In this document: positions 15,392 to 40,271 of the stretch, in pieces | Position numbering within the stretch: the first letter of the stretch is position 1 | Layout: the number at the start of each line of letters is the position of its first letter | NCBI GenBank assembly: GCA_963825135.1 | Contig: CAWGRW010000009.1 | Coordinates: forward strand, 2,688,001-2,752,000 | Source of the DNA: an uncultured bacterium | Lineage (GTDB): Bacteria; Desulfobacterota_D; UBA1144; Nemesobacterales; UBA2774 | Reading direction: 5' to 3' | Length of the DNA stretch: 64,000 nucleotides | Position numbers and translations under genes: made by a program | The notes under the pieces: generated by a model | Seen by the model: the letters and a program-made list of their open reading frames with translations, nothing else | Database searches by the model: none | What the model was told of the DNA's origin: nothing

Positions 15392-15406
15392 CTAGGGATT
15401 GAAAGA

Positions 15407-15482
15407 TGGATTCCCGATAAAGTCACTCGGGAATGACAGAAAGATGAGATTGCCGCGGTTCCTACGGAACCTCGCAATGACA
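15407..15482. repeat. Two short palindromic intergenic repeats (ATTCCC...GGGAATGACA and GAGATTGC...CTCGCAATGACA types)
   Basis: Related motifs recur at 23407-23437, 40420-40635 and 59055-59200. Confidence 0.7.
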
Positions 15483-15495
15483 AAGTATTGGATCT

Positions 15496-16304: not shown

Positions 16305-17309
16305 ATGAAACAAAAACCGGGAAAAAAATCAGGCGCCGAAGAATTCTCCGGCTATCTCGCCTCGGGCGCACCCGCCCCGGTGCTCGTATTCACCGGAGAC
16401 CAGCCCTATCTCATGGACAATGCCGTCGCCGGTCTCAGGCAGACCGTCCTCGGCCCGTCGGGAGACGTCAACTACATAGTATTTTACGGGGAAAGCGCTT
16501 CGGGCAGGGAGATTGCCGACAACGCGAGCACCTACCCGATGTTCTCCAAAAAAAAGCTCATCGTTGTGAAAAACGCGGAGAAGCTCCCGGCGAAGGAGCT
16601 TTCGGCGCTCGAGCCCTACTTCGCGTCCCCGTCCCCGGCCTCCTGCCTCGTGCTCATGTTCTCAGACGGCAAGAAGCCGAAGCTCGGCGGCGGGAAGAAC
16701 GTGACGGCGTTTGACTTCTCTCTGGAGAAGGGGAACACGGCGTCCGCCGTCAGGGAGGAGGCCGGGAAGCTCGGATACGAGATAACGAGGGCGGGCGCTG
16801 AGGCGCTCATAGGCCTCGTCGGGGACGACCTTCAGGAGATACACAACGAGCTCGTTAAGATTTCCATATACAAGGGCGACAAAAAGACCATAGGCCCCGA
16901 GGACGTGGAGGCGCTCACGAAGAAGACGAAATTCGCCGACATATATCAGCTCATCAACGCCATATCGCGGAGGGACAAGCGGACCGCGCACAGGGTGCTC
17001 GGCGAGCTAGAGGCTGCCGGCGAGGAGCCGCTTTCCATACTCGGGCTCATAAGCTGGAGGTTCAGGCTCATATGGAGGGCGAAGGAGCTTCAGGACAGGA
17101 GGCTCGGCCAGGCCGAGATGTTAAAGGAGCTCAAGATCTCTCCCGGGCAGTTCTATTACCTGGGCGAGGACCTGAAAAAGTTCAGCTACGCGGACATAGC
17201 GCGCATAATGGAGGCGCTTGCCGAGTGCGACAAGAAGCTCAAGCTGAGTTATGTGCCCAGGAGCTTCATGCTGACGAAGCTCGTCATCGAGCTGTGCGCC
17301 AGGGGCTGA
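16305..17309 (+). CDS. holA: DNA polymerase III delta subunit
   Basis: PMFSKKKLIVV, NELVKI, EEPLSILG; convergent with rpsT, a common neighbour. Confidence 0.88.
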   Translation: MKQKPGKKSGAEEFSGYLASGAPAPVLVFTGDQPYLMDNAVAGLRQTVLGPSGDVNYIVFYGESASGREIADNASTYPMFSKKKLIVVKNAEKLPAKELSALEPYFASPSPASCLVLMFSDGKKPKLGGGKNVTAFDFSLEKGNTASAVREEAGKLGYEITRAGAEALIGLVGDDLQEIHNELVKISIYKGDKKTIGPEDVEALTKKTKFADIYQLINAISRRDKRTAHRVLGELEAAGEEPLSILGLISWRFRLIWRAKELQDRRLGQAEMLKELKISPGQFYYLGEDLKKFSYADIARIMEALAECDKKLKLSYVPRSFMLTKLVIELCARG

Positions 17310-18427: not shown

Positions 18428-19196
18428 TTAATCATCCTTCCCCTTAACAGCCGCGATCAGGAATTCCTTATTGCCCTCGGCCCCTTCTATGGGCGAGGGG
18501 ATGACGCCTAAAACCCCGACCCCGAGACCCTTGACGAATTCGGTAATTTTATCGACCACCTCCCTGTGCTTGGACTCGTCCCTCACTATTCCGCCCTTCC
18601 CCACCTCGCCCTTGCCGACCTCGAACTGGGGCTTTATGAGCGCGATGAGTACGCCGCCCGGTTTGATGAGCGCGAGAGCGGGAGGAATGATCATAGTGAG
18701 CGAGATGAATGAGACGTCGATTACCACTATGTCGGCGGGCTCGGCTGATGTCAGCGGGCTTAATGTAGCGGGCGTTTAACTTCTCCCTGACCACGACGCG
18801 GGGGTCCTGCCTCAGCTTCCAGTCGAGCTGTCCGTAGCCGACGTCTACCGCGTAAACTTTTGCCGCCCCGTGTTTGAGCAGGCAGTCGGTAAAGCCCCCG
18901 GTGGAAGCGCCTATGTCCACAGCCGTACAGCCCGCCGGGTCTATGCCGAATTCCTTTAACGCCGCTTCGAGCTTGAGACCGCCCCGGCTCACGTATTTGA
19001 GCGCGGCGTCCCTGAGCGTCACCTCCTGACCGTCCTTCACGAGAGCGCCCGCCTTGTCCGTCCTCACGCCGTCCACGTACACGTCCCCGGCCATTATCAC
19101 GGCGCGCGCCTTTGACCTCGACTCGGTAAGCCCCCTCTCGACGAGGACCGTATCGAGCCTCTTTTTAACAGCGGCGCGTTTATCTGTTTTGTTCAT
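18428..19196 (-). CDS. tlyA: TlyA family rRNA (cytidine-2'-O)-methyltransferase (indel near 18745)
   Basis: RLD..LV.RGL, YVSRGGLKL, DIGASTGGFTD in one frame; DVSFISL, LIKPQFE, GNKEFL in the next. Confidence 0.93.
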
Positions 19197-24810: not shown

Positions 24811-25708
24811 TCAATACTGGTTTATGACTTCCCTGTAAAAATCGGGCCTGAGAAGGGACTCGTCCCCGCTCGCGATGCACCGTCCTTATCTTGCTTAGCA
24901 CCTCTTCCTTGTCCCCGGGGAACCTGGCCTTCACGGGCAGGTAGTTCGAGATGTGGTTCGAGAAGAAGTACCCGTCCGTAAGCTCGGTGTTCTCGACGAG
25001 TATTTCGAGCTCCTTTATCATCCGGAACTTGTCCGGAAGCTCGAACTCCCCCCTCTCCCACTCCTCGTACACGGGCGCTCCGGGCCTCAGCTGAAGCGAC
25101 AGCGCCCCCACGTACTCCGGGTCGCACGCGGTAAGAAGTTTTCCGGTCGCCTCCGCGTGCTCCGCGCTCCTCTCCACTCCGCCCATGCCGAGGAGCACCA
25201 TCGCTGAGTTCATTACCCCCGCTTCCTTTAGCATGTGTGATGCCTTCACGGTCTCGGCGAAGTTGGCCCCCTTCTTAATTCTTTCAAGGACAACGTCGTC
25301 CCCGCTCTCGAATCCGATATACACCATGTCGAGTCCGAGGGCCCTCAGCTCTTTCAGGTTCTCGACCCCTTTCCTGAGAATATCGCCGACATTGGCGTAC
25401 ATCCTTATGCGTTCCAATCCGGGAGCTTTTTCCCTGAGGTATCCCATAATATCGATGAGCTTCTTCTGCGCGAGCACGAGCGCGTTGCCGTCGGCTATGA
25501 ACACGCGGTCGTCAATGAGGCCGGATTCGGCAGCCTCGTCTATTATCCGCTTTACTTCTTCCATGGGGCGGGCGCGGAACTTCTGCTCCTCCCCCCTGTA
25601 CATGGCGCAGTAGGTGCACTGGTTGTGAGAGCACCCTATCGTCGCCTGGAGTATGAAGCTATTGCCCTCGCTGGGCGGCCTGAAGTATGGCGTTACGTAT
25701 TCTATCAT
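24811..25708 (-). CDS. Radical SAM protein (indel near 24878)
   Basis: CSHNQCTYC (CxxxCxxC), RPPSE, ADGNAL, YIGFESGDD, SNHISNY. Confidence 0.9.
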
Positions 25709-25760
25709 ACTATTAGTATTAACTATTTTTTAGAACTTTGCAAACCCGGCCCGCACAATC
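25622..25760. repeat. Left direct repeat of AT-rich island (5' end and upstream region of radical SAM gene)
   Basis: 25622-25685 aligns to 29793-29856 with 6 mismatches in 64 nt; weaker similarity continues. Confidence 0.85.
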
Positions 25761-25839: not shown

Positions 25840-27044
25840 CTACGTTCTTTTAAAAACGCAGCTCAACTTGCGCCCCACATATCTTAGTATTACTTTAAAG
25901 TAATTGTATGCATCCATTATAGAAGGTATCGGGTCCCGTATCGATAGGACGGCAAAGGTATTTACACCTCTGATTGAATTGAGCCACTCTTTGAGTGTTA
26001 ATTCGCCTCTATTATAATATGCTCTCGATGCCAGAAGGTCTCTCCCGAAAGAAATCCATTTGACGCCGGTATGCTTTGGTGCTGTATAGGGCGGCAAGTG
26101 CATATCCAGAGCATCACAATACATCGTATATAATATCGGTACTCCGCTGGCTTCAACTTGACCTATGCTCGTATTCGGCCGTCCGACATCCGGTTCTATT
26201 ATAAAATGTTTGCCGCTCTTTTCATCGATTTTTATTTCGAGAGATATGATTCCTTTGTATTGAATACCACTATATATATCAATTGATTCTCTCGGGACCG
26301 GATCATTAAGACAATTTTCTACTAAACTTGCTTCCCCCAATTCTATAGGCCATTGCCGCAGCTTGCGCGATGTATAATTGATTATCCGCTCATGGTTCTT
26401 ATCAAAATAGTAATAGTATTGGTATATATTAGAATCTTTCCCGTCGATCCATTCCTGGATGATGAAGGTGTCAGCCGCCCTTAAGCAATTATCGTATACG
26501 GCATACAGTTCTTCCGGGCTTCGTATTTTTAATACCCTTTTGTCGAAGTATTCGGACCAAGTTTGTGTCGGCCTGGGCGGTTTTACTATGCATGGGTATG
26601 TCACTCTGTTCGCTATCTCTTTTATGTCCGATTTATTACTGATAAGCAAGTGGGGGGTATTGAGAAACCGCCACGCGTCAGGTACTGGTAGAGCTTAACC
26701 TTGTCTATAAGCAAATCAATAACTTCGTGGTCGGCGATTACAAATCCATACCAGTCCTTAAGCGCTTCTCTAAATCCGGATACGGCGAGAACGCTATCGT
26801 CACTGCACGGAAAAAGCGCGGACTTTCCTCCTAATTCTTTACCCAGTTTCAGTAATGTATTTATCAGTTCTTCATTTGATGTGTTAGCAGTTAGAACTTT
26901 TTTACATGAATTAGTCCTGCAGCAAAAATTATCGGGGTTATCCGCAATACCAATTACCGGTATTCCGTATCGAGCCAATATCCTGGATGTTTGCAAACCT
27001 GTGACCGAGTCAAGTTTGATAATTACGGCATGCGGTCTCTGCAT
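25840..27044 (-). CDS. ATP-grasp carboxylate-amine ligase, D-aspartate-ligase-like (indel near 26650)
   Basis: LFPCSD, DK..LY, YPCIVKP, IIQEWIDG, RKLRQWP, EIKID. Confidence 0.75.
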
Positions 27045-27130
27045 TATTTCTTGGCGTCCCCATATAATTGTAGTGCCGGCGGAGGAAACAAAGGTCTTCG
27101 CGCGTTATGAAATATTCCGGATTTTTATAA

Positions 27131-28283
27131 TCAAAAATCATGTAAATAAATCATCTTATAATCCCAGCTGGTTGAATCGAGTAAATTCAGGCCTTGAAAT
27201 TCAAGCTTATTATTATCTTTACCCAAGAGCCGGATCAAAATAGTTCGATGGGGGTTTTTTACGCTTTTTGCGGAGCTGTCTTCTTTAAATCCCTTCGATA
27301 CTAAAAAATCATAGCTGTCCCGGTCCAGCATATCCGCCCAGGTTGAAATTGATCCGTAATCTATGAGCGACATCAGGGTATTTAAGAGCTCGATTTTTAT
27401 TGAGGAGTCGGCCGCCTCTAATTCAAATAAATTATGCGCGCCTCCGGATTCCATACTGTATATATGGCTCTGTAAGGTAAGATAGCCTTTTAAGCAATCA
27501 TCATACCAGTACAGGAAAAGGTATTTTGAAAGCGGGTTGTTGTATCTCCAGCGAAAAAACTGCTCATCCCTTACCTGTGTAATTTTGTTTTCGGGGAGTG
27601 TGCTGTCAACGAGGAGGGCCATTTCCGCCGGTTTGGGTTTATCGTCTATCGTTATGCGGGGAGGAAGCTGAGTCCCCGGATTATGACAGATCATATCGAT
27701 TCTTTGTGAATTGTTCCTTTCGCTCCTTTTCAAGAACATGCCGATCCCGGCCTTTCTCAATAATCTTTCTGGCGTACGGACCTGCCAATTTCTTAGCTAG
27801 TGTCATTGCCCTTGATTCAATTGTTCGGAATTGCTTTTTCATAATCTTAATTTGTCCAACGCTCTTCCAACCCCTGGATAATGAAATCATAGCGTTTAAG
27901 GGGGTCGCATTGAAGCTAAAAAAGTGTTGAGCTCCCATCCTCTCCAAATCTTCCAAGACGAAGTTAGCCAGCTCTTTGTATATACCCCTGTTTCTGTATC
28001 CCTCCAGTATCAGGAGGTCCGCAGAACATAACGCGCTAAAATGAGCCGGCGCGTCTTTTATCCGCCAAGTACTTTCATACACGCCCGCCATTGCCACAAT
28101 CTTATCTCCCGCACGAACAAAATATATTATGGGTTGTTTAGAATGGGGCCGGTCTATGTAGTTCCATTTTACATAGGACCTGAATACATCAAAATCCAGA
28201 CCCCAGTTGATCGTCTTGAGCCTGGCGATTTGATCAATTTGGTTTTCAAAATCATCGGAATATCTTAAAATTTCATGTTTCAT
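27131..28283 (-). CDS. GNAT family N-acyltransferase (indel near 27760)
   Basis: W.Y..RP, ADL.I...YRNRGIY acetyl-CoA-binding motif; second half RD..FF.WRY.NP. Confidence 0.7.
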
Positions 28284-28319
28284 TTGGGCGCAGCCGGGTC
28301 AGGGCATAGAACACTGAAT

Positions 28320-28580
28320 TTATGTTCCGTAACTCTTTACGAAATTTAATATGCTGTCTACGGTGTCCCATTCCTTCATGAAGTCGATGGTCGTCAGGTC
28401 TAGTGGAGCCCGGACTTCCTCCTCAATCAGCAGCGCCAGCTCCAGCAAATGGAGGGATTCCAAGAGTCCGGAAGTTAAGAGCGGCGTGCTGTCGTCGAAT
28501 TCTTCGGGAAGAGACTTTCCGGAGTCCTTAATTTTAGCATCGATAAAATCGGCGAGTATTGTTTTAAAATGTCCTGACAT
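28320..28580 (-). CDS. Acyl/aminoacyl carrier protein
   Basis: 86 aa, acidic; DDSTPLLTSGLLES(L) with the phosphopantetheine-site Ser; DTVDSILNFV. Confidence 0.75.
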   Translation of the reverse strand: MSGHFKTILADFIDAKIKDSGKSLPEEFDDSTPLLTSGLLESLHLLELALLIEEEVRAPLDLTTIDFMKEWDTVDSILNFVKSYGT

Positions 28581-28590
28581 TTGAAAGTCC

Positions 28591-29599
28591 TTAAACCGAA
28601 GTGTCGAGCTCCTTCCAGCTCACGGGTTTTGCCATTGCAACCACGACCTTTCTCCGGCCCGAAAACGGCTTCCTACCGTGAGCGACGAGCATATTGTCCA
28701 ACACCAGAAGATCGCCCGGCTCCCATCTGAAAGCAACTGTCGCTGAATCATATGCTTTCCTCAGTTCGTCAATCACGTCCTTGCCGATTCTCGTACCGTC
28801 GCCATAGTAGGTATTGTTCGGAAGGTCTTTCTCTTTGAAGAATTTAAGAAGCATCTGCTGCAGTTTCGGCTCTATTGCATATACGTTAAGCACGGCAGCA
28901 TGGTTGAGCCACAGCATTTCTCCGGTAACGGGGTGCTTCGCGACCGCGGGCCTAAGCTGTTTCGTTCTTACTTTTTTCTCGTCCATCCATTCAAAATCCG
29001 TCTCCGATTCTTTACAGAACCTTTCCATCTCGGCTCTGTCCTGTGTTTGGTAAACTTCCTGCCACGTAAAGCCGAAAGGTCCGCCGGCCAGATTTCTGAC
29101 ATATAAAACACCTTTCTCCTCGAACGGTTTTCTTATCGAGGGGTCTATCCGTTCGTAGACCTTCCTTACGTCCGCTATCGGCGTTTCCCCCCCATTTTCA
29201 GCGGCCTCAATACAGTAAAAGAAAATCCTCATCGGGAATTTTGCGGCGAATGAGCTTTCGTTATGAAGAATTATCTCCAGCTCCGGCGGGTAATTGGTAG
29301 CCGTGTATACATTGCCTTTGACCTGAGTCCTGTGAGTGGCCCTGTCGTTATAATCAATCAGGCCTCCGTAGCAGTCCCTGACCGCCGATTCAAAGTCCCC
29401 GATGCCGTCGATGCGAAACCCCCTGAACAATATCCCCCCGTGTTTTAATAAATTCGCTTCTATTTCGTTTTGATTTAATTTGAGAAAATCGTTTAAAGCC
29501 AGTCCTCCCGCGCTTCGGGGTAACGACAAGCGCCAGTTTTTTATCGTCGTCAAAAAAACCTGTATTTACTTCGATGTTTTCATTAATTCCGATTGTCAT
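28591..29599 (-). CDS. TauD/TfdA family Fe(II)/2-oxoglutarate dioxygenase, SyrP-like (indel near 29510)
   Basis: HGGILFRGF, LHNESSF (H-x-E), GGETPIAD, HPVTGE, DNMLVAHGR. Confidence 0.88.
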
Positions 29600-29792
29600 A
29601 CCTACCCTTGTTTTCCAATCGAAGGAAGGAATAGTCAGTAAGCACGAATCATTATGCTTCTTTCATAAAATTAGTGAGCAATAACGCTTATTATTTGAAT
29701 TTTACTGCTTTGTCGGTATTTATCAACTTTCGAGCCCCATAAACAGGTCCGGCTCAAAAGACAGGCAGTTACAGCATGTTAAGGAGTTACTC

Positions 29793-29920
29793 GTTGTGGG
29801 AGCACCCTATCGTCGCCTTGAGAATGAAGCCATTCCCCTCGCAGGGCGGCCTGAAGCATTGGCATTAAGTATTTATATGAATATTGCGACTCCCGGGCAG
29901 ATTGCCAAACCCCGGACTGC
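29793..29920 (-). pseudogene. Decayed copy of radical SAM gene 5' end (right direct repeat of island)
   Basis: Translates FRPPCEGNGFILKATIGCSHNE* versus FRPPSEGNSFILQATIGCSHNQ in the intact gene; no intact start. Confidence 0.85.
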
Positions 29921-30014
29921 AGGCGATGAACCGCTCAAAGTATGCTATAGTCCATGAAGATTATTGTTTGTGAGCGGTAGCATGGTACTCATCAGGCCGA
30001 TATAGGATACCGCA

Positions 30015-30875
30015 ATGCCGATCGATAAGCTCATCAATGTTCTAATCACGATAACTCTCTTCGAGATGATGGTGGCCATCGGCCTGAGCGTGAGCATTAA
30101 AGAGCTAATCGGCGTCGCCGGGAACCTCCGCCTCGTGACGCGGGCCGCGCTGGCGAATTATGTTTTCGTCCCCATAGCCGTTCTGGCTTTATTGTCTTTA
30201 TTTCATCCCGATCCCCTGGTTGCCGCGGGGTTTCTCATCGTCGCCGTATGTCCGGGGGCACCCTACGGGCCGCCCTTCACAGCTATCGCCAAGGGCAATG
30301 TATCGGCGGCGGTCGGCCTGATGGTAATTCTCGCCGGATCGTCCGCAGTCCTCGCCCCGGCACTCCTTTATTTCCTCCTGCCCCTCATGGGGGGAGGCGG
30401 AACGCTGAGCGTGGATGCGGGCAGGATCCTGATCACGCTTCTCATGACCCAGCTCCTGCCTTTATGTATCGGGCTCTTCATTCGACACCGTCGTCCTGAC
30501 ACCGCCGCAAGGCTCCGGAAACCGTTTACCCAGCTAAGCAAGGTCCTCAATCTTCTTGTGCTCGGCTTTATCCTTGTAGTCCAGTTCCATGTGCTCTCTG
30601 CAGTCAGACCGAGAGGTTACGCCGGGATGATCGCGCTCCTGGTCCTTTCACTTGCGGCAGGGTGGCTTCTGGGCGGACGCGAGAGCGCCAATAGGAAAGC
30701 TATGGCGCTTGCTACATCAGTTCGGAACGTCAGCGTGAGCCTCGTGATTGCGACCGGGAGCTTCCCCGGCACGCCGGCTGTCACGGCGGTGCTGGTATAT
30801 GGCATCTTCCAGACTTTAGCATCGGCCCTGATTGCACTCGGATGGGGCCGACTGAGCAAGGAGCCGCATCCGTAG
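30015..30875 (+). CDS. Bile acid:sodium symporter family transporter
   Basis: AIGLS, ANYVFVP, CPGAP, AKGNV, TSVRNVS; multiple TM segments. Confidence 0.85.
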   Translation: MPIDKLINVLITITLFEMMVAIGLSVSIKELIGVAGNLRLVTRAALANYVFVPIAVLALLSLFHPDPLVAAGFLIVAVCPGAPYGPPFTAIAKGNVSAAVGLMVILAGSSAVLAPALLYFLLPLMGGGGTLSVDAGRILITLLMTQLLPLCIGLFIRHRRPDTAARLRKPFTQLSKVLNLLVLGFILVVQFHVLSAVRPRGYAGMIALLVLSLAAGWLLGGRESANRKAMALATSVRNVSVSLVIATGSFPGTPAVTAVLVYGIFQTLASALIALGWGRLSKEPHP

Positions 30876-31079
30876 CGGGAATTATAACCCTATGACGGCA
30901 AAGATTCCGGCAGTTCGGCTCGTTCAAACCGTTAAACAGAAAGTTGCCCATTGTGTTGACTCATGCATATCAATTATAATAATTCCTAATAAGCGCTGAT
31001 AGCTATTCAATCATTCTCCGATTGATGCGGGTTGTGTATTAATCTTGAATAGGCCGGGGAAAAAGGAGCATGCATTCAG

Positions 31080-32465
31080 ATGAAAATTAAACCCGTAACC
31101 AAAGAAGAGAGGCGTAAACAGGGAAAAGCCCTTCGCGAGAAGTGTCCGCGCTCCTCACACGCGGAATGGAATCCGCAGCCGCGCCCTCAGACCGTCGCTG
31201 ATCTTCTCGAAGAATCAAATGCCGACAGGATCCCCGGACTCATCGCAATCCGCTACGGCAGGATGGCCCAGACTCCATTCACCTTCTTCCGCGGCTCGGC
31301 CATCATACAGGCGCGCGACCTGATCAATTCTCCGAACTCGGGTATCACCGTTCAGGCCTGCGGCGACTGCCACCTGATGAATTTCGGCGGCTTCGCTACG
31401 CCAGAGCGGAACCTTGCATTCGATATCAACGATTTCGACGAGACTTTTCCGGCTCCGTTCGAGTGGGATATAAAGCGGCTTGCGGCGAGCATCGTGGTAT
31501 GCGCCAGGGAACGGGACTTCTCAAAAAAGGACGCGGATAAAGCCGTCGGGGCAGCCGTCGAGTCGTACAGAACGCGTATGTCGGAATACGCCGATTTGAC
31601 GCTTTTAGAGCTCTGGTACTCGAAAATCACCTTAGACGACATGATGGAGGCTTTTAAAGAGCATGAGGACACGGTAAAAAGGATAGAGAAGAAGAAAGAG
31701 GAAGCGCAGTCCCGAACCTCCGAGGCTTTATTTCCCAAGCTTACCGATGTCAAGGACGGATTAAGAAGGATCGTGGATAACCCTCCGTACATCTTTCATT
31801 TCAAAGAGAACGTTCCGGAGTTCGAAAAGGCCGCAATTAAGTTCAGGGAGCACTACGAGAAAACGCTGCAATCAGACCGACGGATTTTATATAATCGCTA
31901 CATCCCCGAAGACATAGTGGTAAAGGTCGTCGGAATCGGCAGTGTGGGCACACGATGTGTTGTCTCATTGCTGCTTGCGGATGAGAATGACCCTCTATTC
32001 CTGCAGATCAAGGAAGCGCGCCGGTCGGTGCTCGAGCCTCCCGGCGCAAAGAGCCGTTTTAAAAACCAGGGGCAGCGGGTGGTAGACGGTCAGCGTCTCC
32101 TTCAGGCGATGAGCGACATCTTCCTCGGCTGGTCCCGGGTCCCCGGCGGGCACGATTATTATGTCCGCCAGCTCCGTGACATGAAGATATCCGCAGAGCC
32201 CGAAACATGGTTTCCGGAGACCATGATAGACTATTCGACGATGTGCGGATGGGCACTGGCGCGGGCGCATGCAAAGTCCGGGGACGCTCAAATGATAGCC
32301 GGATACCTTGGATCATCCGACCGATTCGACGACGCCGTAGCGGCGTACGCCGAGTCTTATGCCGATCAGGTAGAACACGACTTCGAGGCCTTCAAGAAGG
32401 CGATCAGCAGGGGCCGTTTTCATACGGATATAGACGAGTCGAGCGAATTCAGCTTTCTCTTGTAG
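31080..32465 (+). CDS. DUF2252 domain protein
   Basis: RYGRM..PFTFFRGSA, CGDCHLMNFG, FDINDFDE, KVVGIGSVGTR, RQLRDMK, LARAHA.SGD. Confidence 0.9.
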   Translation: MKIKPVTKEERRKQGKALREKCPRSSHAEWNPQPRPQTVADLLEESNADRIPGLIAIRYGRMAQTPFTFFRGSAIIQARDLINSPNSGITVQACGDCHLMNFGGFATPERNLAFDINDFDETFPAPFEWDIKRLAASIVVCARERDFSKKDADKAVGAAVESYRTRMSEYADLTLLELWYSKITLDDMMEAFKEHEDTVKRIEKKKEEAQSRTSEALFPKLTDVKDGLRRIVDNPPYIFHFKENVPEFEKAAIKFREHYEKTLQSDRRILYNRYIPEDIVVKVVGIGSVGTRCVVSLLLADENDPLFLQIKEARRSVLEPPGAKSRFKNQGQRVVDGQRLLQAMSDIFLGWSRVPGGHDYYVRQLRDMKISAEPETWFPETMIDYSTMCGWALARAHAKSGDAQMIAGYLGSSDRFDDAVAAYAESYADQVEHDFEAFKKAISRGRFHTDIDESSEFSFLL

Positions 32466-32534
32466 CCTCCCGTTTAAGAAATTTGTCTTAGATTGCGCTT
32501 AGTTTTGCATAAACCAGTTGGAAGGGAGATAACC

Positions 32535-33092
32535 ATGCGTATTGTCATCCGTACGCTTCAGGGGTTCATGCTGATGTTTCTTATCTTCTCGCCTATGCAT
32601 TCCGCTAATGCGGCGAGTAAAAGCGAGATTAACCGCAAGGTCACGGCCGCGTTGAATACGCTCTACGAGACGACGCCCGGGGCAGAAACCCTCGCGGGCA
32701 ATGCAAAGGGGATACTCGTCTTCCCGGACATCGTGAAGGCCGGTCTTATAGTCGGAGGCCAGTACGGGGACGGCGCCATGCGCATGAAAGGAAAGACGGT
32801 CGCTTACTACCGGTCGTTTGCGGGTTCGTTCGGATTGCAGGCGGGCGTGCAGTCATTCGGCTACGTATTGTTGTTCATGGACGATAAATCGCTCGAATAT
32901 CTGGAAAATAGCGACGGCTGGGAAATCGGCACCGGACCGAGCGTCGTCGTCCTGGACAAGGGATTCGGAAAGAATCTGTCGTCGACGACCCTGAGGAAGG
33001 GCGTCTACGCCTTTATCTTCGATCAGAAGGGGCTAATGGCCGGCATCGGTCTCCAGGGCTCGAAAATAACCAGGATCACGCCTGACAAGTAG
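32535..33092 (+). CDS. Lipid-binding SYLF (Ysc84-like) domain secreted protein
   Basis: Signal peptide; AKGILVFP..KAG..VGGQYG.G, SFGLQAG, KGLMAG..LQGSKI. Confidence 0.85.
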   Translation: MRIVIRTLQGFMLMFLIFSPMHSANAASKSEINRKVTAALNTLYETTPGAETLAGNAKGILVFPDIVKAGLIVGGQYGDGAMRMKGKTVAYYRSFAGSFGLQAGVQSFGYVLLFMDDKSLEYLENSDGWEIGTGPSVVVLDKGFGKNLSSTTLRKGVYAFIFDQKGLMAGIGLQGSKITRITPDK

Positions 33093-33214
33093 TGACGGTA
33101 TGTTCTATCCCGGAGACCGAAGGCAGCCCGCGAGAACAGACAACATCGCTCGTGGTTGTGATGTAATCAAGAACGCCTCATCAGGACCAATCGAGTGACC
33201 AGGAGGCATAAAAA

Positions 33215-35020
33215 ATGATCCTTCAGAGAATATTCACCCGACCCGGTTCCATTCCGTTTTTGGTCATAGCGGCCGCGCTCGTATCGGCGGGCCGCGCGCT
33301 CGGAATCGAATCGGATGTCACGGTCCCGAAATGGGGAATGATTCTTATCGGCCTCTTCGGGGGTCTCGCTATTTTCCTGTTCGGCATGGACCAGATGACG
33401 GACGGACTTAAGGCGGTCATGGGCGACGGCATGAGCACGCTCCTGTCGAGGCTCACAAAGAACAGGTTCATGGCGACCGTCACGGGCGCTATCACTACCG
33501 CTATCATACAATCCTCGTCCGTGACCACGGTTATCGTCATCGGGTTCATATCCGTCGGCCTTATGACGCTTGAGCAGGTCATCGGCGTCATCCTGGGCGC
33601 TAATATAGGCTCGACCATCACGGCCCAGATGATCGCGTTCAATATAACGCAGTACGCGCTCCTGCCTGTAGCCATAGGCTACGGGATGCGGTTCGTGTCA
33701 AAGTCCGAAAAAACCCGTATTTACGGCGGCATCCTCATGGGCATAGGGCTTGTCTTTTTCGGGATGGGAGTGATGAGCGACGCGACCCATCCGCTCCGCA
33801 CATATCAGCCGTTCATCGACGTGATGAAGGAAATGAGCAATCCGCTCCTGGGTATCAGCGCAGGCCTGATATTCACCGGTCTGGTGCAGAGCTCGGCCGC
33901 GACCATAGGCATCGTCATCGTGCTCGCTTCGCAGGGGGCAATAACGCTCGACGCCGGAATAGCGATCGTCCTGGGCGCGAACGTAGGCACATGCGTGACT
34001 GCCGTACTCGCGGCCATAGGCAAGCCCGCGCCCGCGAAACAAGCCGCGGCCGCGCATATCCTGTTCAACATAATCGGCGTGCTTATATGGCTTCCCTTCA
34101 TCGGCTACCTCGCTATGCTCGCCGAAGCCGTCTCTCCGGTGAGCGCGAATCTGTCCGGGACCGAGCTGCTGGCGGCCGACACGCCCCGTCAGATCGCAAA
34201 CGCCCACACTCTATTCAACGTTGCTAATACGCTCATCTTCATAGGCATAATCGGGCCGTTTGCGAGCCTGATCAAGCGGCTCATCCCCGAGCGGCCCGAG
34301 GTTCTGCCCGAGTACGCGCAGCCCAAATACCTGGACGAAGCATTATTGCAAACACCTGCGCTAGCCATCGAGCGCATACGTCTCGAAGCGGTGCGTCTCG
34401 GGGGATATGTGGAGGAATTAATAGAAGCGGCAAGGCCCGCCGTGCTCTCAGGCGGCGGGGAAGACCTGGACAAGATCGTATCCCGTGAAAAGGAGCTCCG
34501 TATGCTGCACGACGCGATCATGGATTACGCAAGACGGCTCTATTCCACGGAGATGAAGTCGTCTGAAACGAGAAGGCTCGAGGCTTTGATCACAGTGACC
34601 GTCAACCTGGAGCACGTCGGAGAAACAATAGCCGTAAATATGGTATCAATCGGCAGGGAGCGGCTTGAGCAGCGCTTTACGTTTAGCGAGGAGACGATCA
34701 GCCGGTTCCAGCCGTATTCGTCTAAGGTCAGGGAGGCTTTTCATACGGCAATTGAAGCCCTCGAACTGAAGGATGCCCGGCTTGCCGTGAGGGTCGTCGA
34801 GATGAAGCCGGACGTCGAAAGGCTGGCGGACGAGATAGTCGAGCACCTCTCCCGCCGCCTGGTCAGCGACGATCCTAACCGGGCAGTGCTTTACAGAGTC
34901 GAAAGCCAGTTCGTAGAGCTCATTCAGCGCATATATTATTTTGCCGGTATGATAGCCAATGAGATAGCACAGGAAGCCGGGTATGGGAAAGCGTCCGTCA
35001 CACCCGTGCTATCCATTTAG
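33215..35020 (+). CDS. Na/Pi cotransporter family protein with PhoU-like C-terminus
   Basis: QSSSVTT, GANIGST, QSSAAT, GANVGTC repeats; IANAHTLFN. Confidence 0.9.
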   Translation: MILQRIFTRPGSIPFLVIAAALVSAGRALGIESDVTVPKWGMILIGLFGGLAIFLFGMDQMTDGLKAVMGDGMSTLLSRLTKNRFMATVTGAITTAIIQSSSVTTVIVIGFISVGLMTLEQVIGVILGANIGSTITAQMIAFNITQYALLPVAIGYGMRFVSKSEKTRIYGGILMGIGLVFFGMGVMSDATHPLRTYQPFIDVMKEMSNPLLGISAGLIFTGLVQSSAATIGIVIVLASQGAITLDAGIAIVLGANVGTCVTAVLAAIGKPAPAKQAAAAHILFNIIGVLIWLPFIGYLAMLAEAVSPVSANLSGTELLAADTPRQIANAHTLFNVANTLIFIGIIGPFASLIKRLIPERPEVLPEYAQPKYLDEALLQTPALAIERIRLEAVRLGGYVEELIEAARPAVLSGGGEDLDKIVSREKELRMLHDAIMDYARRLYSTEMKSSETRRLEALITVTVNLEHVGETIAVNMVSIGRERLEQRFTFSEETISRFQPYSSKVREAFHTAIEALELKDARLAVRVVEMKPDVERLADEIVEHLSRRLVSDDPNRAVLYRVESQFVELIQRIYYFAGMIANEIAQEAGYGKASVTPVLSI

Positions 35021-35232
35021 AAACGCCTGTAGCGCTTCGGGCAGGGACATTTAAGAGGACTATTGCAATCCGGTTTACCATCTTCACATGGATCGGGCGG
35101 CAATCCCGGACAGCCGGGCTTTCGGGAGGCGATTCCACAAAGTTGACAGAAAAATATACGCAGTAAGATAGTATTATAGATAAGATAATATGAGCTCCGA
35201 GGGGGGGTCGAGGTTGAGGAGGCATTGTAATC

Positions 35233-36165
35233 ATGAGAGAGATAAAAAGGATAATATGGGCCAGCGACGGCTCGAAGGAATCATTGGAAGCGCTTAACTA
35301 TGCAATATATCTCGCCCGGAGATCCCGGGCCGAACTGACGGGCATATACGTGATCGAAATGCATCCGAGGCTCTTATACGACTACGCGAGGGACCCCGAC
35401 AGCGACCTCTACGGATGGGTGGAGCAAGCGGCCGCCAGCCACAAGGCGAGACTCGCTTCGGAGGCGGAGAACGCGGGCGTTGAGGGTCTCCCATTCCGTA
35501 CCTCCGTCTTGATCGGAGACCCGAGCGTGGAAATCGTCAAACTCGCGCGCCGCAGGAAGGCCGACCTCATAGTATTGGGGATACGCGGTCTCGGCCTAAT
35601 AGACAGGATGCTGGTCGGGAGCACGGCGTTGAAAGTTTTAAGACAGTCCGGTATTCCCGTCCTCGCCGTTAAGAAAAGGGACAAAACAAGTGCGATAGAG
35701 ATACGGAACATTCTCGTCCCCCTGGATATATATGAAAAAGAAGAATCCGCCCTGAGCTGCGCAGTAGATTTGGCGCAGGCGTTCAAGGCGAATATCTCGG
35801 TCGTGTACGCCTACAGGCTGTTCGCTTACGCCGCCCTCGAAGAAGGAGAACCCCCGGTCGGAATAAATGAATTGGGCGAGGACGCGCTGAAGTTTTTTTC
35901 CGCAGAACTGGCGGCGCGGGTCGAGGAACCGAGACAAAGGCTTAAGACAGACGGCACAGAGGCCGGCAAACCGGGGATCACGACGGATCAGATCGAGGGA
36001 ATAAACCCCGCGATGGGCATTGTCGAGTACGCGGACAATAAGGAAATGGACTTGATAGTAGTAAACACCCATGCGAGAAAGGGGATTAAAAAGTTTATCA
36101 TGGGGAGTGTTACCGAGAAGATCGTTCAGGAGTCCGCCTGTCCGGTATTGGTCATCAAGCCGTAG
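35233..36165 (+). CDS. Universal stress protein (tandem UspA domains)
   Basis: ADLIVLG..G....LVGSTA..V and DLIVV...IMGSVTEKIV..SACPVLVI. Confidence 0.9.
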   Translation: MREIKRIIWASDGSKESLEALNYAIYLARRSRAELTGIYVIEMHPRLLYDYARDPDSDLYGWVEQAAASHKARLASEAENAGVEGLPFRTSVLIGDPSVEIVKLARRRKADLIVLGIRGLGLIDRMLVGSTALKVLRQSGIPVLAVKKRDKTSAIEIRNILVPLDIYEKEESALSCAVDLAQAFKANISVVYAYRLFAYAALEEGEPPVGINELGEDALKFFSAELAARVEEPRQRLKTDGTEAGKPGITTDQIEGINPAMGIVEYADNKEMDLIVVNTHARKGIKKFIMGSVTEKIVQESACPVLVIKP

Positions 36166-36263
36166 CACACGGGTCTCTATGCAGGAGCTTCACGCAATGT
36201 TATAATCCCTGCTAATTCCGATTATCAATGATTACGTCGGCCATACGTTAAATAGAGGGGACG

Positions 36264-37019
36264 ATGATTATGCGAAGAATTAATTATAAAACGCTTGCGG
36301 GCGGCTTTATCTGGCTGAGTTTGGCGCTCATATTCATCATGCCGAAAACCGTTCGGGCGCAGTATGAGTTTACAAACGACGAAGCGCAGTTTACGACCGA
36401 ATATCCGGGCCTCGCAGTCCAGGACTTCAGGGGACTCGGCGTGACGCCGGGGTCGGATAGCAACTGCACCGCGCCCGTAGATGAATTAAGCAACGACGCG
36501 TGCTTTTCTCCCGGCGATATACTCCCGGGGATCGAATTCTCGGCTTTCCCCCAGGGGGATATTGCACTATTGGGCGCGTTCGTAGCCAATAACCCTTTCC
36601 CCGCGCTCGCGACCGACGAATTTTTGGATACGCTGGTTATAGGTTTCCTGAACGGAGACGTCAAGCAGGTGGGCATCGACCTCTGCTGTTTCGCAGAGGG
36701 GGGAGCGCCCTGCAGTGAAACCCTGAACGTAAACGTATTCAACGAAGACGACGTACAGATAGGCTCAACGACGGTTATAGCCACGGACGAGTGCGACAGC
36801 TTCCTCGGCATATCGTCCGATAAGTTCATATTGAGGGTCGAGATCTCGGGACCGGACGATATTTTTCCGGGCGTCGACAAAGTGCTCTTCGGCAACCGGG
36901 TCGGGGAGAACGTCCCGACTCTGAGCGAATGGGGGATGCTCTCGGCCGCAGCGGGATTGGGATTGATCGGACTGTTCTTCGTTGCGAGGAGAACTAGGGC
37001 CGTGAGGCGGGCCGGATAA
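36264..37019 (+). CDS. IPTL-CTERM sorting domain secreted protein
   Basis: Signal peptide; C-terminal VPTLSEWG + TM + RRTR. Confidence 0.85.
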   Translation: MIMRRINYKTLAGGFIWLSLALIFIMPKTVRAQYEFTNDEAQFTTEYPGLAVQDFRGLGVTPGSDSNCTAPVDELSNDACFSPGDILPGIEFSAFPQGDIALLGAFVANNPFPALATDEFLDTLVIGFLNGDVKQVGIDLCCFAEGGAPCSETLNVNVFNEDDVQIGSTTVIATDECDSFLGISSDKFILRVEISGPDDIFPGVDKVLFGNRVGENVPTLSEWGMLSAAAGLGLIGLFFVARRTRAVRRAG

Positions 37020-37066
37020 ATCAACCCCGGACCGGATACCTGTTGAAGCTCCCGCCCGGATATATC

Positions 37067-37094
37067 TTTACAAAGACAGATAAGCCGTTATAAT
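37067..37094 (+). promoter_or_regulatory. Sigma-70-like promoter
   Basis: TTTACA-16 nt-TATAAT, 9 nt before the ATG at 37104. Confidence 0.5.
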
Positions 37095-37103
37095 TCTGCG
37101 GTC

Positions 37104-37256
37104 ATGAGCGAACAAGAGAAAAAAGACGGACAGAAGAAGCTATTCGAGCTTTCGGAGCGCGAGAAATCGGGCGCGCTTTACATCATGGGCGTGGCAATAC
37201 TCATATTCTCTATCGTATTCCTCGCCTCCCTCACCAACATAGTGCTCCATCCCTGA
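37104..37256 (+). CDS. Small single-TM protein (50 aa; absent from ORF track)
   Basis: MSEQEKKDGQKKLFELSEREKSGALYIMGVAILIFSIVFLASLTNIVLHP; host-like codon usage; promoter upstream. Confidence 0.65.
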   Translation: MSEQEKKDGQKKLFELSEREKSGALYIMGVAILIFSIVFLASLTNIVLHP

Positions 37257-37260
37257 GTGT

Positions 37261-37761
37261 TCAGGCGGCCGATACCCACCTGATAAGGAGCGTTACGAGG
37301 CCGTGAGGGTCGAGCGGCCCGCCCGCGTTGTCCTTGTAAACTACTGCGCTATCTTCCTTGCTGAAATTAACCTTGATGAGCTGGATCGCTGACGAGAGCT
37401 TGCCCTCGCCGTCCTTTTCGGTCCTCCTAATCTTTCCGATCACCGTGAGCAAGTCGGGGTCTTCGTCGAACAGGACGACTATCCTCGATGGGGAGAATAC
37501 CGAGAAACCGCCCCTCCTGCCGGGTATGGACAGGAAGAGTCCGAGGAAATCCGGCGTGAGCCTCTGGAGCGACAGCCTCATGCCCGGCGAGGCGTCGTTA
37601 AAAATAGTTACCGCACGCCTGGTGAGCACGTAAAACTCCTCTACGGCAGCGAGGAATACCTTGTCTTCGTCCGTGAGCGGGGGTATTGCCGCAGGTGTAC
37701 CTTCACCCTTCTGCACGCTCCGTGCAATCGTCCTTATATCATTTTCGAAATCGTCGGCCAT
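37261..37761 (-). CDS. Hypothetical protein
   Basis: 166-aa ORF with GAGG RBS and host-like codon usage; no recognised motif. Confidence 0.65.
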   Translation of the reverse strand: MADDFENDIRTIARSVQKGEGTPAAIPPLTDEDKVFLAAVEEFYVLTRRAVTIFNDASPGMRLSLQRLTPDFLGLFLSIPGRRGGFSVFSPSRIVVLFDEDPDLLTVIGKIRRTEKDGEGKLSSAIQLIKVNFSKEDSAVVYKDNAGGPLDPHGLVTLLIRWVSAA

Positions 37762-37959
37762 TTATAGTCCTCGTTATTTAGAGTCCCCCGCCCGGGAGCG
37801 AAGGCTCCCGCCATAGCGATGACAAATTATAATCGCGATAACACGGACGTAAAGCACTATGGATATTCGAACTCGGAGGATCGTCCGTCCGCCCCTGATT
37901 TTTTTATCTATTATCAGCGTGCCCCGTGTGCTAGGATATAAATAAGAGGAGCAGAGATT

Positions 37960-38166
37960 ATGGCTAATGAATCCACGAGAGTTTCATTTGTGATTGATTC
38001 GGAGAAGCGCGTTTCGCTCGATAAGATCGCCTGCGCCTACGGCAAGAACCTGAGCGCGGTCATAAACGAGGCGATAAACAATTACATAGACATCCACGGG
38101 CGGTATGCGAGCCTTGCGCAGATAGAGGCGGACGCCTCCGAAGACGGGGACTTCGCGACCGACTGA
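37960..38166 (+). CDS. CopG/ribbon-helix-helix family protein (antitoxin-like, possibly truncated)
   Basis: RVSFVID....LDKIA......S.VINEAI..YI and C-terminal GDFATD; GAGGAG RBS. Confidence 0.6.
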   Translation: MANESTRVSFVIDSEKRVSLDKIACAYGKNLSAVINEAINNYIDIHGRYASLAQIEADASEDGDFATD

Positions 38167-38247
38167 GGGAACGAATCGCATTCCGTTCTTATGCGCCGTC
38201 CCGGATTGAAATCACATGCGAATCTGGTACTGTAACTCCCTGTTCAT

Positions 38248-40218
38248 GTGTGCTCCGGGGGGACATTCCAGTTGAAGACCAAACCGCTTTATGCGAGGGT
38301 TGCCGGGATAGTTTTACTCGCGGCGGCTTTGTACGGGTGCGAAACAGCCGGGTCCGACCTCTCGCTCAAAGGCAGGGTTATTGCCGGGGACGAGCCCGTA
38401 TCGGGCTCGAGCGTGACCCTCTACGCGGCGGGCACCGTAATATCCGAGACCCTGGGCGGCGGCTCGACCGACAGCGAGGGGAATTTCAGCATAAAATTCA
38501 GAAGACCGGCCGAGAGCGGCATCATTTACGCCGTCGCCCGCGGGGGAACGCCCCGGGGGAACGCCTCGCCTAACGAAGCGCTCGCGTTCCTCACCATAAT
38601 CGGCGAAGTCAACGGCAGGCCGGACAGGGTGACGCTGAACGAGCTTACGACCATAGCGTCCGTGTGGACGAACGCCCGGTTCCTGAGCGGGAGCGCGATA
38701 ATAGGAAACAGCACCGGCATATATAACGCAGCCGGGAACGTACGGAACATAGTCAATATAGAGACCGGCGCGCCGGGCGGGGTTATAGTGAACGCCGTGA
38801 ACGGCTCCCCTGCCGGGGCGCTCGCATCAACCAACACGCTGGGCGATATTATCCACGCGTGCGCGGTTCACTCGCCCGCGGACGCCTGCGAAAAACTCTT
38901 CTCCGCGGCGACCCCTCCCGGATGGTCCGCACCCGGAGACACCATTTCGGCGCTCCACGACATAGCGCTTAACCCCTGGAACAACATCGATGGAATATTC
39001 TCTCTCCTGTCCATGGGCGAGCCCTATTCCCCGGTGCTCAACTCGCCCCCTTCGTCGTGGGCGGTCGCCCTTAAATACACGGGCGGCGGACTCGACTCGC
39101 CCGGAGCTTTAGCCATAGACGCGGACGGCGACGTCTGGGTGACTAACAGCCTCCTGTCAGGCCCGGAGGACTGTCCGTCCGACGGGTCCGGGGCGACGAA
39201 GCTCGCTCCCGACGGCACGCCGCTCTCCCCGGCTTCCGGATTTACCGGAGGAGGCATAGACGGCGCGGGCTCCGGCATCGCCATAGACCAGACCGGGAAC
39301 GTATGGATAGGGAACAGACGGGGGAACAGCGTATCCCTGATCACCCCCGACGGCTCGCCACTCTCCCCGGACGGGACGGGCTACAAGGCAAACGGCAATA
39401 CTAGCAGGGTCGAGGGGGCGATAGTCGATTACGACGGGAACGTATGGTTCATCAACGGCAGGGCTTCTGACGAGTGCCCCGGATGCGGGAATTCGCTGAT
39501 ATTATTCCCCGGCGGGGACCCCAATAACGCGGTGACGTTCGTATACCCCGGCACAGATACGCTCGACTGGCCTTTCGACATGGCGCTCGACCTCGAAGGG
39601 GACATATGGATAACGAACGGCGCGGGCGGCACCGTGACCAGCATCGACCCTCTGGGGAACCCGGCGTATCAGTCCTTACCCGGATGCTGCGGAATAAGCG
39701 GGCCCAAGGGCCTCGCCGTCGACAGCGTCGGCAACGTGTGGATAGCGAACTTCACGGGCGGGGAAGGCGCCGGCGCGGGGAGCGTCACGCTCCTCGACCC
39801 GTACGGAGCGAACGCCCCGGGATCGCCGTTCACAGGCGGCTTACAGGGCCCCTGGGGAATAGCGATAGACGGGGACGACAACGTCTGGGTAGCCGACTAC
39901 AACGGGGGCGTTCTAGTGAACCTCTGCGGGGAGAGGAGCGAGAACTGCCCTCAGGGGCTTGCTACGGGGGACGCGATATCTCCCTCGGCCGGATACGACG
40001 GCGGGGGCGCGCTCCAGCACGTTACCTCGGTCGCGATAGACCAGGCGGGGAACGTCTGGGCCGCCAACAACGTGAACGACCCCGAAGCGTGCGCCAGGAT
40101 GACGGAAGAAGGCTGCAGACAGGTGTCCACCGAATGCGGAGGGGACGGGGTGGTGGTCTTCTTCGGACTCGCTGCCCCTGTCGATGCGCCCCTTATCGGC
40201 CCTCCGAGGCAGCCGTAG
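38248..40218 (+). CDS. Secreted lipoprotein with NHL-like beta-propeller repeats
   Basis: Lipobox LYGC; repeated P.G(I/L)AID..GNVW(I/V)AN motifs; true start may be TTG at 38272. Confidence 0.8.
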   Translation: MCSGGTFQLKTKPLYARVAGIVLLAAALYGCETAGSDLSLKGRVIAGDEPVSGSSVTLYAAGTVISETLGGGSTDSEGNFSIKFRRPAESGIIYAVARGGTPRGNASPNEALAFLTIIGEVNGRPDRVTLNELTTIASVWTNARFLSGSAIIGNSTGIYNAAGNVRNIVNIETGAPGGVIVNAVNGSPAGALASTNTLGDIIHACAVHSPADACEKLFSAATPPGWSAPGDTISALHDIALNPWNNIDGIFSLLSMGEPYSPVLNSPPSSWAVALKYTGGGLDSPGALAIDADGDVWVTNSLLSGPEDCPSDGSGATKLAPDGTPLSPASGFTGGGIDGAGSGIAIDQTGNVWIGNRRGNSVSLITPDGSPLSPDGTGYKANGNTSRVEGAIVDYDGNVWFINGRASDECPGCGNSLILFPGGDPNNAVTFVYPGTDTLDWPFDMALDLEGDIWITNGAGGTVTSIDPLGNPAYQSLPGCCGISGPKGLAVDSVGNVWIANFTGGEGAGAGSVTLLDPYGANAPGSPFTGGLQGPWGIAIDGDDNVWVADYNGGVLVNLCGERSENCPQGLATGDAISPSAGYDGGGALQHVTSVAIDQAGNVWAANNVNDPEACARMTEEGCRQVSTECGGDGVVVFFGLAAPVDAPLIGPPRQP

Positions 40219-40271
40219 GAATTGGTTGAGGTATCAGTTGTATCCTGCTTTATTACCTATACTTATACATC

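Follow-up and report, generated by a model that had tools for sequence, protein, structure and literature searches.

A SyrP-like dioxygenase, a free-standing carrier protein and a tandem GNAT acyltransferase form a recurring cassette away from nonribosomal peptide synthetases in uncultured bacteria

How might a bacterium modify an amino acid on a carrier protein and pass it on when no nonribosomal peptide synthetase (NRPS) stands beside the carrier? This question is raised by four genes in a 64,000-nt stretch of the genome of an uncultured bacterium (contig CAWGRW010000009.1 of assembly GCA_963825135.1), which we call the window. The genes lie at positions 25840 to 29599 of the window, co-oriented on the minus strand in the order TauD-type dioxygenase, carrier protein, GNAT acyltransferase and ATP-grasp ligase, with gaps of 10 nt (TauD/carrier), 36 nt (carrier/GNAT) and 86 nt (GNAT/ATP-grasp). 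The original prediction, made from the DNA letters, named the same four co-oriented genes and the same gaps and read them as a candidate undescribed NRPS-free pathway. We analyzed this cassette by profile searches, structure models and comparison with related loci. The first three genes recur together away from NRPS genes, the ATP-grasp gene accompanies them in one subclade, and, judged by its composition and junctions, the copy in the window is a discrete inserted islet.

The first gene (28591 to 29599, minus strand) encodes a TauD/TfdA-family Fe(II)/2-oxoglutarate dioxygenase of a SyrP-like clade. Its frame is broken by one extra nucleotide near 29507; the long frame in the window matched Pfam PF02668 at 150.8 bits against a cut-off of 27 (E = 8.9e-44), and the protein of the related locus L001 scored 155.7 bits. 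Intact orthologues have 335 amino acids, and the window protein is 94.7% identical to that of L001 over residues 32 to 335. The H-x-E...H iron ligands that had been read from the letters were borne out: in an alignment of 115 family members, at least 97% keep H112-x-E114...H307 together with R309 and R316, and the same residues can be read in the window translation. The predicted SyrP-like kinship held as well, with NRPS genes adjacent to relatives at 41 to 50% identity. At 74 of 75 loci of such relatives, an open frame of at least 700 amino acids lies beside the TauD gene, and all five frames sampled were NRPS condensation-adenylation-thiolation modules. In the cited passages on SyrP-type beta-hydroxylases (syringomycin and cupriachelin-type siderophores; PMC7100376), the reported proposal is that TauD-type enzymes hydroxylate aspartate bound to a carrier, and the cassette protein shares with these enzymes the Pfam family, the H-x-E...H/Arg set and 41 to 50% identity to NRPS-adjacent members. 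Unlike them, it has as its partner a free carrier of 86 amino acids and not an NRPS thiolation domain. The refuting case of homologs that always sit within a larger NRPS cluster did not arise, with no NRPS gene beside TauD at any cassette locus whose neighbors were annotated. The TauD clade at 64% identity or above was confined to this cassette. Three homologues at 54 to 56% identity hold PF02668 and the phosphopantetheine-binding domain PF00550 in one protein (precomputed Pfam annotation), and a search with such a TauD-carrier fusion protein returned mostly cyanobacteria, Pseudomonas and Herpetosiphon. Because the TauD relatives stand beside NRPS modules, the tethered group would be an amino acid, by kinship of the TauD family alone.

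The second gene (28320 to 28580, minus strand) is intact and encodes a stand-alone carrier of 86 amino acids of the type II peptidyl carrier protein (PCP) type, with Ser42 as the presumed phosphopantetheine site. The conserved serine named in the original prediction was present in 8/8 aligned carrier sequences, and a profile built from eight orthologous carriers matched the type II peptidyl carrier PltL (E = 4.6e-5) with Ser42 aligned to the PltL serine. The same profile matched the D-alanyl carrier DltC more weakly. By these profile matches, the protein looks like the aminoacyl carriers PltL and DltC. Hits to carrier-protein models of NCBIfam were weak. One of these models, the ornithine-lipid carrier NF052616, scored 29.5 bits against a cut-off of 130, and membership of the cassette carrier in that family was dropped at scores of about 25 to 30 bits.

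The third gene (27131 to 28283, minus strand) encodes a tandem, two-lobed GNAT acyltransferase of the Eis/N-myristoyltransferase (NMT)-like type. One extra nucleotide near 27765 breaks its frame, and tblastn recovered it as two segments in differing frames; intact orthologues have 380 to 383 amino acids. Sequence searches of the PDB and NCBIfam gave no match for this protein, and its Pfam signal (Acetyltransf_1/Acetyltransf_9) was limited to the N-terminal lobe. An AlphaFold2 (AF2) model from 28 sequences (mean predicted local confidence, pLDDT, 83.7) was a two-lobed GNAT, in agreement with the original prediction, and its best fold matches were Eis2 (9mva; Z 20.5), Eis (3sxn; 19.3), a Mycobacterium abscessus tandem GNAT (19.2) and NMT (2p6e; 19.0). 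FemA (1lrz) came at rank 43 with Z 12.3, and Pfam FemAB had no hit in the window or L001 proteins. Like the Eis/NMT tandem GNATs (9mva, 3sxn, 2hv2, 3n7z and 2p6e) and the protein of the clavulanic acid cluster (2wpw/2wpx), the cassette GNAT has two lobes in about 380 amino acids, with about 275 to 310 residues aligned at Z 17 to 20.5. Unlike the Eis/NMT proteins, to which it is only 9 to 15% identical, it has a carrier as its neighbor or within the same protein. The pyrophosphate-binding loop on the catalytic lobe of GNATs is R/Q-x-x-G-x-G/A; in the alignment of the cassette family R97, G100 and Y102 are invariant, giving R-x-x-G-x-Y, with a last position that is neither G nor A.

The GNAT belongs to a large family. 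At E <= 1e-30, an exhaustive profile search gave 473 cluster representatives, and at E <= 1e-10 it gave 1111; a word-indexed search for homologues returned 45 only. Ten of the 150 listed GNAT relatives (P0327, P0341, P0344, P0347, P0353, P0355, P0362, P0384, P0407 and P0431, one of them titled as a Gammaproteobacteria metagenome-assembled genome [MAG]) are carrier-GNAT fusions of 471 to 493 amino acids. Their N-terminal extension of about 100 amino acids, in which a DS(L/Q/S) serine motif is retained, was hit by the cassette carrier profile at E = 3e-13 to 4e-17; in two of six fusions, a Pfam phosphopantetheine-binding match fell just below threshold (19.2 and 17.4 bits; cut-off, 20.8). The GNAT relatives and fusions that were looked up carry generic names only. 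This pairing or fusion of the GNAT with a carrier suggests an acyl-carrier rather than an acyl-coenzyme A (acyl-CoA) donor.

The fourth gene (25840 to 27044, minus strand) encodes a COG3919-like ATP-grasp carboxylate ligase. A missing nucleotide near 26643 breaks its frame, and another near 25873 alters the last 12 or so codons; intact orthologues have 398 to 409 amino acids. Pfam had no hit for the window protein, a sequence search of the PDB gave no match, and matches to PRK12767 in NCBIfam were below threshold, so that no curated family cut-off was reached. The ligase fold named in the original prediction was confirmed by an AF2 model (34 sequences, pLDDT 89.4) with a standard ATP-grasp fold, closest to 2pn1 (Z 26.6), PurK, PylC and L-amino-acid ligases. 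The cassette protein shares this fold (Z 20 to 26.6) with 2pn1 (CPS-like, with no function assigned), with PylC and with the L-amino-acid ligases 3vot, RizA and BacD, and, unlike PylC and D-aspartate ligase, it stands in a context of neither pyrrolysine nor peptidoglycan synthesis. Automatic annotation calls members of the wider family (503 hits) "carboligase" or "D-aspartate ligase," among other names. The label of D-aspartate-ligase-like given to the gene originally finds its counterpart only in automatic names of homologues at 41 to 45% identity and is not supported, the loci of the relatives being of an exopolysaccharide type and not a peptidoglycan type. At 73 loci of relatives at 37 to 50% identity, the accompanying genes encoded D-2-hydroxyacid dehydrogenase (32 loci), PEP-mutase-family proteins (26) and polysaccharide deacetylase (15), plus GT4 and GT2 glycosyltransferases.

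We tallied the recurrence of the cassette by profile searches in 30 fetched loci and the window; one locus, L210, duplicates L120. The carrier gene lay directly upstream of the GNAT gene in 20 of 25 assessable loci, and TauD lay directly upstream of the carrier in 17 of 19 (counting a TauD fragment in L214), the negatives being L212 and L215. In every close locus, the TauD clade at 64% identity or above, the carrier and the GNAT occurred together. The loci with no carrier were L122, L216, L219, L220 and L221, the last three being relatives at 23 to 27% identity only. The ATP-grasp gene was present in 14 loci of the tally, and at nine of the loci (the window, L001, L114, L115, L116, L119, L204, L205 and L206) it stood in an operon-like row with the carrier. 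By this distribution, the ATP-grasp gene is confined to one subclade and is outside the invariant core. The GNAT was present in one to three copies per locus beside a single intact carrier. Extra, partly decayed carrier or GNAT copies were seen at L114:5481-7306, L119:11119-11364 and L116:9145-10310, which suggests that cassettes grow by tandem duplication of the carrier-GNAT unit followed by loss. Among 41 genomes, 13 had the GNAT (the source genome counted). Apart from the source genome, 9 genomes of the genus were covered, and 6 of them had it; in the family the count was 11 of 24, and 16 genomes from other families of the order held one 56-amino-acid GNAT fragment only. The cassette-bearing records are titled as Candidatus Dadabacteria, Thermodesulfobacteriota or "delta proteobacterium" MAGs.

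The borders of the cassette in the window are sharp. The G+C content (GC) of the islet is 0.443, against 0.579 and 0.539 in the 4-kb flanks, and the cassette was lower in GC than both flanks at 10 of 12 loci measured; the exceptions were L116, with an upstream glycosyltransferase block of the same low GC, and L218, with a cassette slightly richer in GC than both flanks. At the upstream edge lies a partial duplicate of 68 nt (29789 to 29856, minus strand) of the 5' end of a downstream radical S-adenosylmethionine (radical-SAM) gene, detected as a tblastn match to residues 36 to 57. The original repeat copy at the downstream edge (25622 to 25746, minus strand) takes in the start of the intact radical-SAM gene, its first codons together with the region upstream of them, and matched by blastn the L001 segment upstream of TauD; across it, GC climbs from about 0.37-0.46 to 0.55-0.64. 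A radical-SAM duplicate upstream of TauD is also found at L001 (blastn and alignment) and at L205. Because the duplicate is common to the window, L001 and L205, the cassette entered at the start of the radical-SAM gene in a common ancestor. It is single-copy in the source genome. By composition, junctions and distribution, the locus is best explained as a horizontally acquired, lineage-restricted cassette, inserted as a discrete islet at the 5' end of a radical-SAM gene. The radical-SAM gene and a luciferase-like (LLM) gene were considered as further members and ruled out, having host-like GC. They follow the cassette only where the neighboring genes are the same, three of those loci (the window, L001 and L205) bearing the duplication scar, and their absence from L116, L117, L119 and L120 assigns them to the host flank. 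A weak sigma-70-like promoter match (TTGATA-16-TAAAAT, 10/12 matches) lies at 29699 to 29726 on the minus strand, about 100 nt upstream of the TauD start; the region held 14 sites of this kind, against 8.1 +/- 3.1 in shuffled sequence.

What could these genes do together? The Condensation domain had 0 matches in the 94%-complete source genome, in which PKS (polyketide synthase) ketosynthases were not searched for. The genome search that the original prediction called for, for a partner adenylation enzyme and a phosphopantetheinyl transferase (PPTase), succeeded for the PPTase, with one PF01648 match (72.3 bits, C9:2018186-2018446), but gave no AMP-binding gene close by: the nearest of 10 AMP-binding matches ends about 286 kb before the window start. 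We propose, as a plausible reading that stops short of probable, that an amino acid is hydroxylated on a private carrier and then transferred by the Eis/NMT-like GNAT without an NRPS; every chemical step, the substrate and the acceptor are what we infer. The single PPTase of the genome would convert the carrier to its holo form, and the amino acid would be loaded on the Ser42-phosphopantetheine. In the ATP-grasp subclade, the loader would most simply be the cassette ATP-grasp, acting via an acyl-phosphate as CtaD of closthioamide and BtrJ of butirosin synthesis do; alternatively, the enzyme may carry out further amide formation in this subclade. The SyrP-like TauD would hydroxylate the carrier-tethered amino acid, and the tandem GNAT would take the hydroxy-aminoacyl group from the carrier thioester and N-acylate an amine of a glycoconjugate or small molecule. 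Eis2, Eis and NMT are thioester-dependent N-acyltransferases, which supports GNAT transfer to an amine.

The neighbors of the cassette bear on the acceptor. At L116 and L218, an orthologous sulfotransferase gene (65% identity) and two GT32-like genes (55 to 58%) lie directly upstream of TauD. A low-GC block upstream of the trio is common to the two loci (L116:83-7558 and L218:1745-6272) and holds the two GT32-like glycosyltransferase genes and the sulfotransferase gene. L116 also has GT2 genes, genes for a PAP2-like membrane protein, an HTTM protein and a GDSL lipase, and a phage-type integrase gene downstream (16357 to 17274). Other neighbors were an arylsulfotransferase at L213, a sulfate ABC importer at L215 and a kinase with an MFS transporter at L119 and L120; at L117, the trio is followed by ketosynthase, HAD phosphatase and class-III aminotransferase genes. 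No universal partner beyond the four genes emerged across the annotated loci. From this gene content, the acceptor in the related islands is probably a sulfated glycoconjugate. The original suggestion of transfer to a surface polymer thus gains some support from the sulfotransferase and glycosyltransferase genes of L116 and L218.

Several observations weigh against the proposed route. The window and L001 carriers had no Pfam phosphopantetheine-binding (PF00550) match at E <= 0.01. The cassette ATP-grasp is likened to CtaD and BtrJ by its fold and its adjacency to a carrier, not by sequence. Beside its relatives at 37 to 50% identity, neither the carrier profile nor the GNAT profile had a match (0 of 73 loci). 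The standing of these relatives in exopolysaccharide-type loci without a carrier favors an ancestral role as a carboxylate-amine ligase of glycan modification, and this context weakens the case for a CtaD/BtrJ-like carrier loader in the cassette. The ATP-grasp gene is missing from at least seven loci with the carrier-GNAT pair or the trio (L117, L120/L210, L212, L213, L215, L218 and others), although these loci have downstream sequence. The recurrence sought for the four-gene unit is borne out, outside NRPS contexts, but its invariant core leaves out the ATP-grasp, which cannot serve as the loader at every locus. Next to the trio, no further activating enzyme recurred in the annotated neighborhoods. 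That the GNAT unloads the carrier and does not load it is inference as well. Finally, three of the four cassette genes are frame-broken in the source genome, and the cassette may be dead in the source organism.

The last point leads to the alternative that has to be taken most seriously, namely, that the cassette here is a decaying pseudogene array, ancestrally acquired and recently inactivated by four real 1-nt indels, with no present function. We regard this as a substantial possibility that falls somewhat short of being the likely one. Relative to intact orthologues, the four indels fall within 3.76 kb (+1 near 29507 and 27765, -1 near 26643 and 25873), none of them within a long homopolymer, and they are absent from L001, L003 and L004. 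In short-read contigs of four public runs, wherever a run had an indel listed close to a site, at most a few bases away, it read the other length (3/3 for X1, X2 and X4 at 26644-26649; 3/3 for X1, X7 and X2 at 27764-27765; 2/2 for X1 and X4 at 29507-29509). Those reads stem from relatives: contigs at least 99% alike to the window numbered 0 in the four runs, the best of which held 0.20 of the sampled words. Against the closely related genome G001, tblastn gave two frame switches in the 3.3 kb of cassette covered and three in the 37.3 kb of the rest of the window (Poisson P of about 0.03). Amino-acid changes unique to one branch number 56 for the window and 17 for L001, and every GNAT-bearing genome in the set of 13 has an intact GNAT copy except the source genome.

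Much of the pattern of change in the genes speaks against real decay. Under neutral change, roughly one synonymous change would be expected for every three non-synonymous changes. The base changes unique to the window were 49 synonymous and 32 non-synonymous, against 29 and 8 for L001, so that the non-synonymous share is higher than in L001 and the changes are still mostly synonymous. The window GNAT keeps 38/38 invariant and 31/32 near-invariant columns, the ATP-grasp keeps 31/31 and 36/37, and the TauD metal ligands remain readable. The mostly synonymous changes and the kept columns indicate that the genes were under selection. The source assembly, which has 17 contigs, one of 2.79 Mb, also breaks housekeeping genes that are whole in G001, at two of the three frame switches outside the cassette. 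An S4/FtsJ (TlyA-like) methyltransferase gene (about 18431 to 19196, minus strand) is split near 18750 into parts matching Pfam FtsJ positions 1 to 86 and 89 to 179, and a LipB/LplA-like gene (about 15392 to 16171, minus strand) loses its last 45 or so profile positions near 15650. Consensus indel errors are the simplest reading of those breaks. Counting indels of lengths not divisible by three in blastn alignments across the window was too noisy for a background rate, with compensated pairs, intergenic gaps and ambiguity over which genome was at fault. On balance, we lean slightly toward assembly error or very recent events as the source of the cassette indels. Elsewhere in the window, a gene of no Pfam family (about 48522 to 50016, minus strand; about 480 to 497 amino acids) shows a frame switch near 49195 relative to a single 497-amino-acid frame in G001, both frames being open.

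A different assignment of roles to the same genes is unlikely, though with evidence of its own: the GNAT would be the loader, charging the holo-carrier from an acyl- or aminoacyl-CoA, TauD would modify the bound unit, and the ATP-grasp would work apart from them, as a carboxylate-amine ligase, on the released product or on the acceptor. GNAT loading domains charge carriers in some polyketide synthases, such as CurA. This arrangement would suit an invariant core of carrier plus GNAT, fusions included, loci with the trio only and no ATP-using enzyme, and the lack of a carrier near the distant ATP-grasp relatives (0/73 loci); the ketosynthase, phosphatase and aminotransferase of L117 could extend a carrier-bound unit. 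However, the closest folds of the GNAT (Eis, NMT, MshD and glucosamine N-acetyltransferases) N-acylate amines, one to three GNAT paralogues per single intact carrier fit several acceptors better than several donors, and no CoA-ligase recurs in the loci.

Lipid synthesis is improbable. The carrier would hold a fatty acyl group, the GNAT would act like an N-acyl-amino-acid synthase to give an aminolipid, TauD would hydroxylate the lipid, and the ATP-grasp would add a further amino acid. GNAT-fold N-acyl amino acid synthases that use acyl-acyl carrier protein (acyl-ACP) do exist and count in favor, as do the weak NF052616 match, the ketosynthase near the trio in L117, and the PAP2-like membrane protein and GDSL lipase of the L116 island. 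However, the NF052616 score is far under its cut-off, the best solved relatives of the carrier are the aminoacyl carriers PltL and DltC and not fatty-acid ACPs, the whole wider TauD family is NRPS-associated, and the loci share no recurring genes for an acyl-ACP synthetase or a dedicated fatty-acid synthase. We give equally little weight to a broader conjecture in which carrier plus tandem GNAT would be the core of an unrecognized, widespread NRPS-free relay able to do without an ATP-dependent loader of its own; charging or discharging of the carrier would fall to the GNAT, directly from an activated donor such as aminoacyl-tRNA or acyl-CoA, accessory enzymes (the SyrP-like hydroxylase and sometimes the ATP-grasp) would edit the tethered unit, and the product would decorate sulfated surface glycoconjugates. 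That the four genes are the leftover of a larger NRPS or PKS cluster, as the original prediction allowed, is very improbable indeed: the TauD family is otherwise NRPS-linked, but the 94%-complete genome has 0 Condensation domains, the annotated cassette loci have no NRPS neighbor, and the islet is sharply bounded in composition, with a duplication scar that marks one insertion point.

Two observations from the comparison with G001 concern the genomes and not the cassette. In a search of window positions 30001 to 50000, the stretches at about 40300 to 40640 and about 43880 to 45900 had multiple matches to G001 contigs; a part at about 40336 to 40383 was 85 to 98% identical, and the 2-kb stretch was 65 to 77% identical to many G001 contigs. 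These matches suggest dispersed repeats or a multi-copy element at both places. Contigs C4, C5, C10, C11 and C17 of G001 (loci L080 to L113) match the same parts of the window at differing identities, which suggests that more than one strain was binned in this related MAG.

Returning to the proposed hydroxylation and transfer on a private carrier, parts of the logic have precedents. In the passages cited, closthioamide and butirosin are made by NRPS-independent thiotemplated assembly in which an ATP-grasp enzyme loads aspartate or glutamate on a stand-alone PCP (PMC7183216; PMC11350588; PMC4431377). As described there, CtaD/CtaE/CtaF/CtaG and BtrJ/BtrI/BtrK/BtrH resemble the cassette in having a free carrier beside an ATP-grasp with no adenylation or condensation domains, and in tailoring the carrier-bound amino acid before a stand-alone transferase passes it on, as we propose for the cassette. 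Unlike those systems as the same passages present them, the cassette has a tandem GNAT in place of a papain-like ligase as its transferase and a TauD hydroxylase in place of a pyridoxal phosphate (PLP) decarboxylase for tailoring. Its ATP-grasp, again unlike theirs, is dispensable in many loci and has nearest relatives that are not linked to a carrier. Neither a PLP decarboxylase nor a papain-like transacylase was among the annotated cassette neighbors. A further likeness, by description alone, is the small dapdiamide cluster, in which the Fe/2-oxoglutarate oxygenase DdaC acts on a carrier-tethered substrate together with an ATP-grasp-type amide ligase. That pathway differs in its adenylation-thiolation didomain loader and in having no GNAT.

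To call the four genes an undescribed NRPS-free pathway was therefore an overstatement, NRPS-independent thiotemplated logic having been published in the work cited (PMC7183216). The combination of a SyrP-like hydroxylase, a private carrier and a tandem GNAT was not found in the published literature at the level of titles, abstracts and the passages cited, which is no proof of its absence. The logic of a free carrier with an ATP-grasp and no NRPS is thus published, and the TauD-carrier-tandem GNAT combination, with its fusions, is the new part.

The finding matters less for this genome, because its copy may be broken or mis-assembled. If the proposed route is true, the cassette would offer a compact and mobile means of producing a hydroxylated amino-acyl group and attaching it, in which a free carrier and a double GNAT replace NRPS condensation. 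The GNAT family, with its 473 representatives, is large, partly carrier-fused and generically named, and so it could mark many carrier-dependent tailoring systems overlooked by cluster finders keyed on adenylation, condensation and ketosynthase domains. The sulfotransferase and glycosyltransferase genes that adjoin the cassette in two loci point to the cell-surface chemistry of poorly known uncultured lineages.

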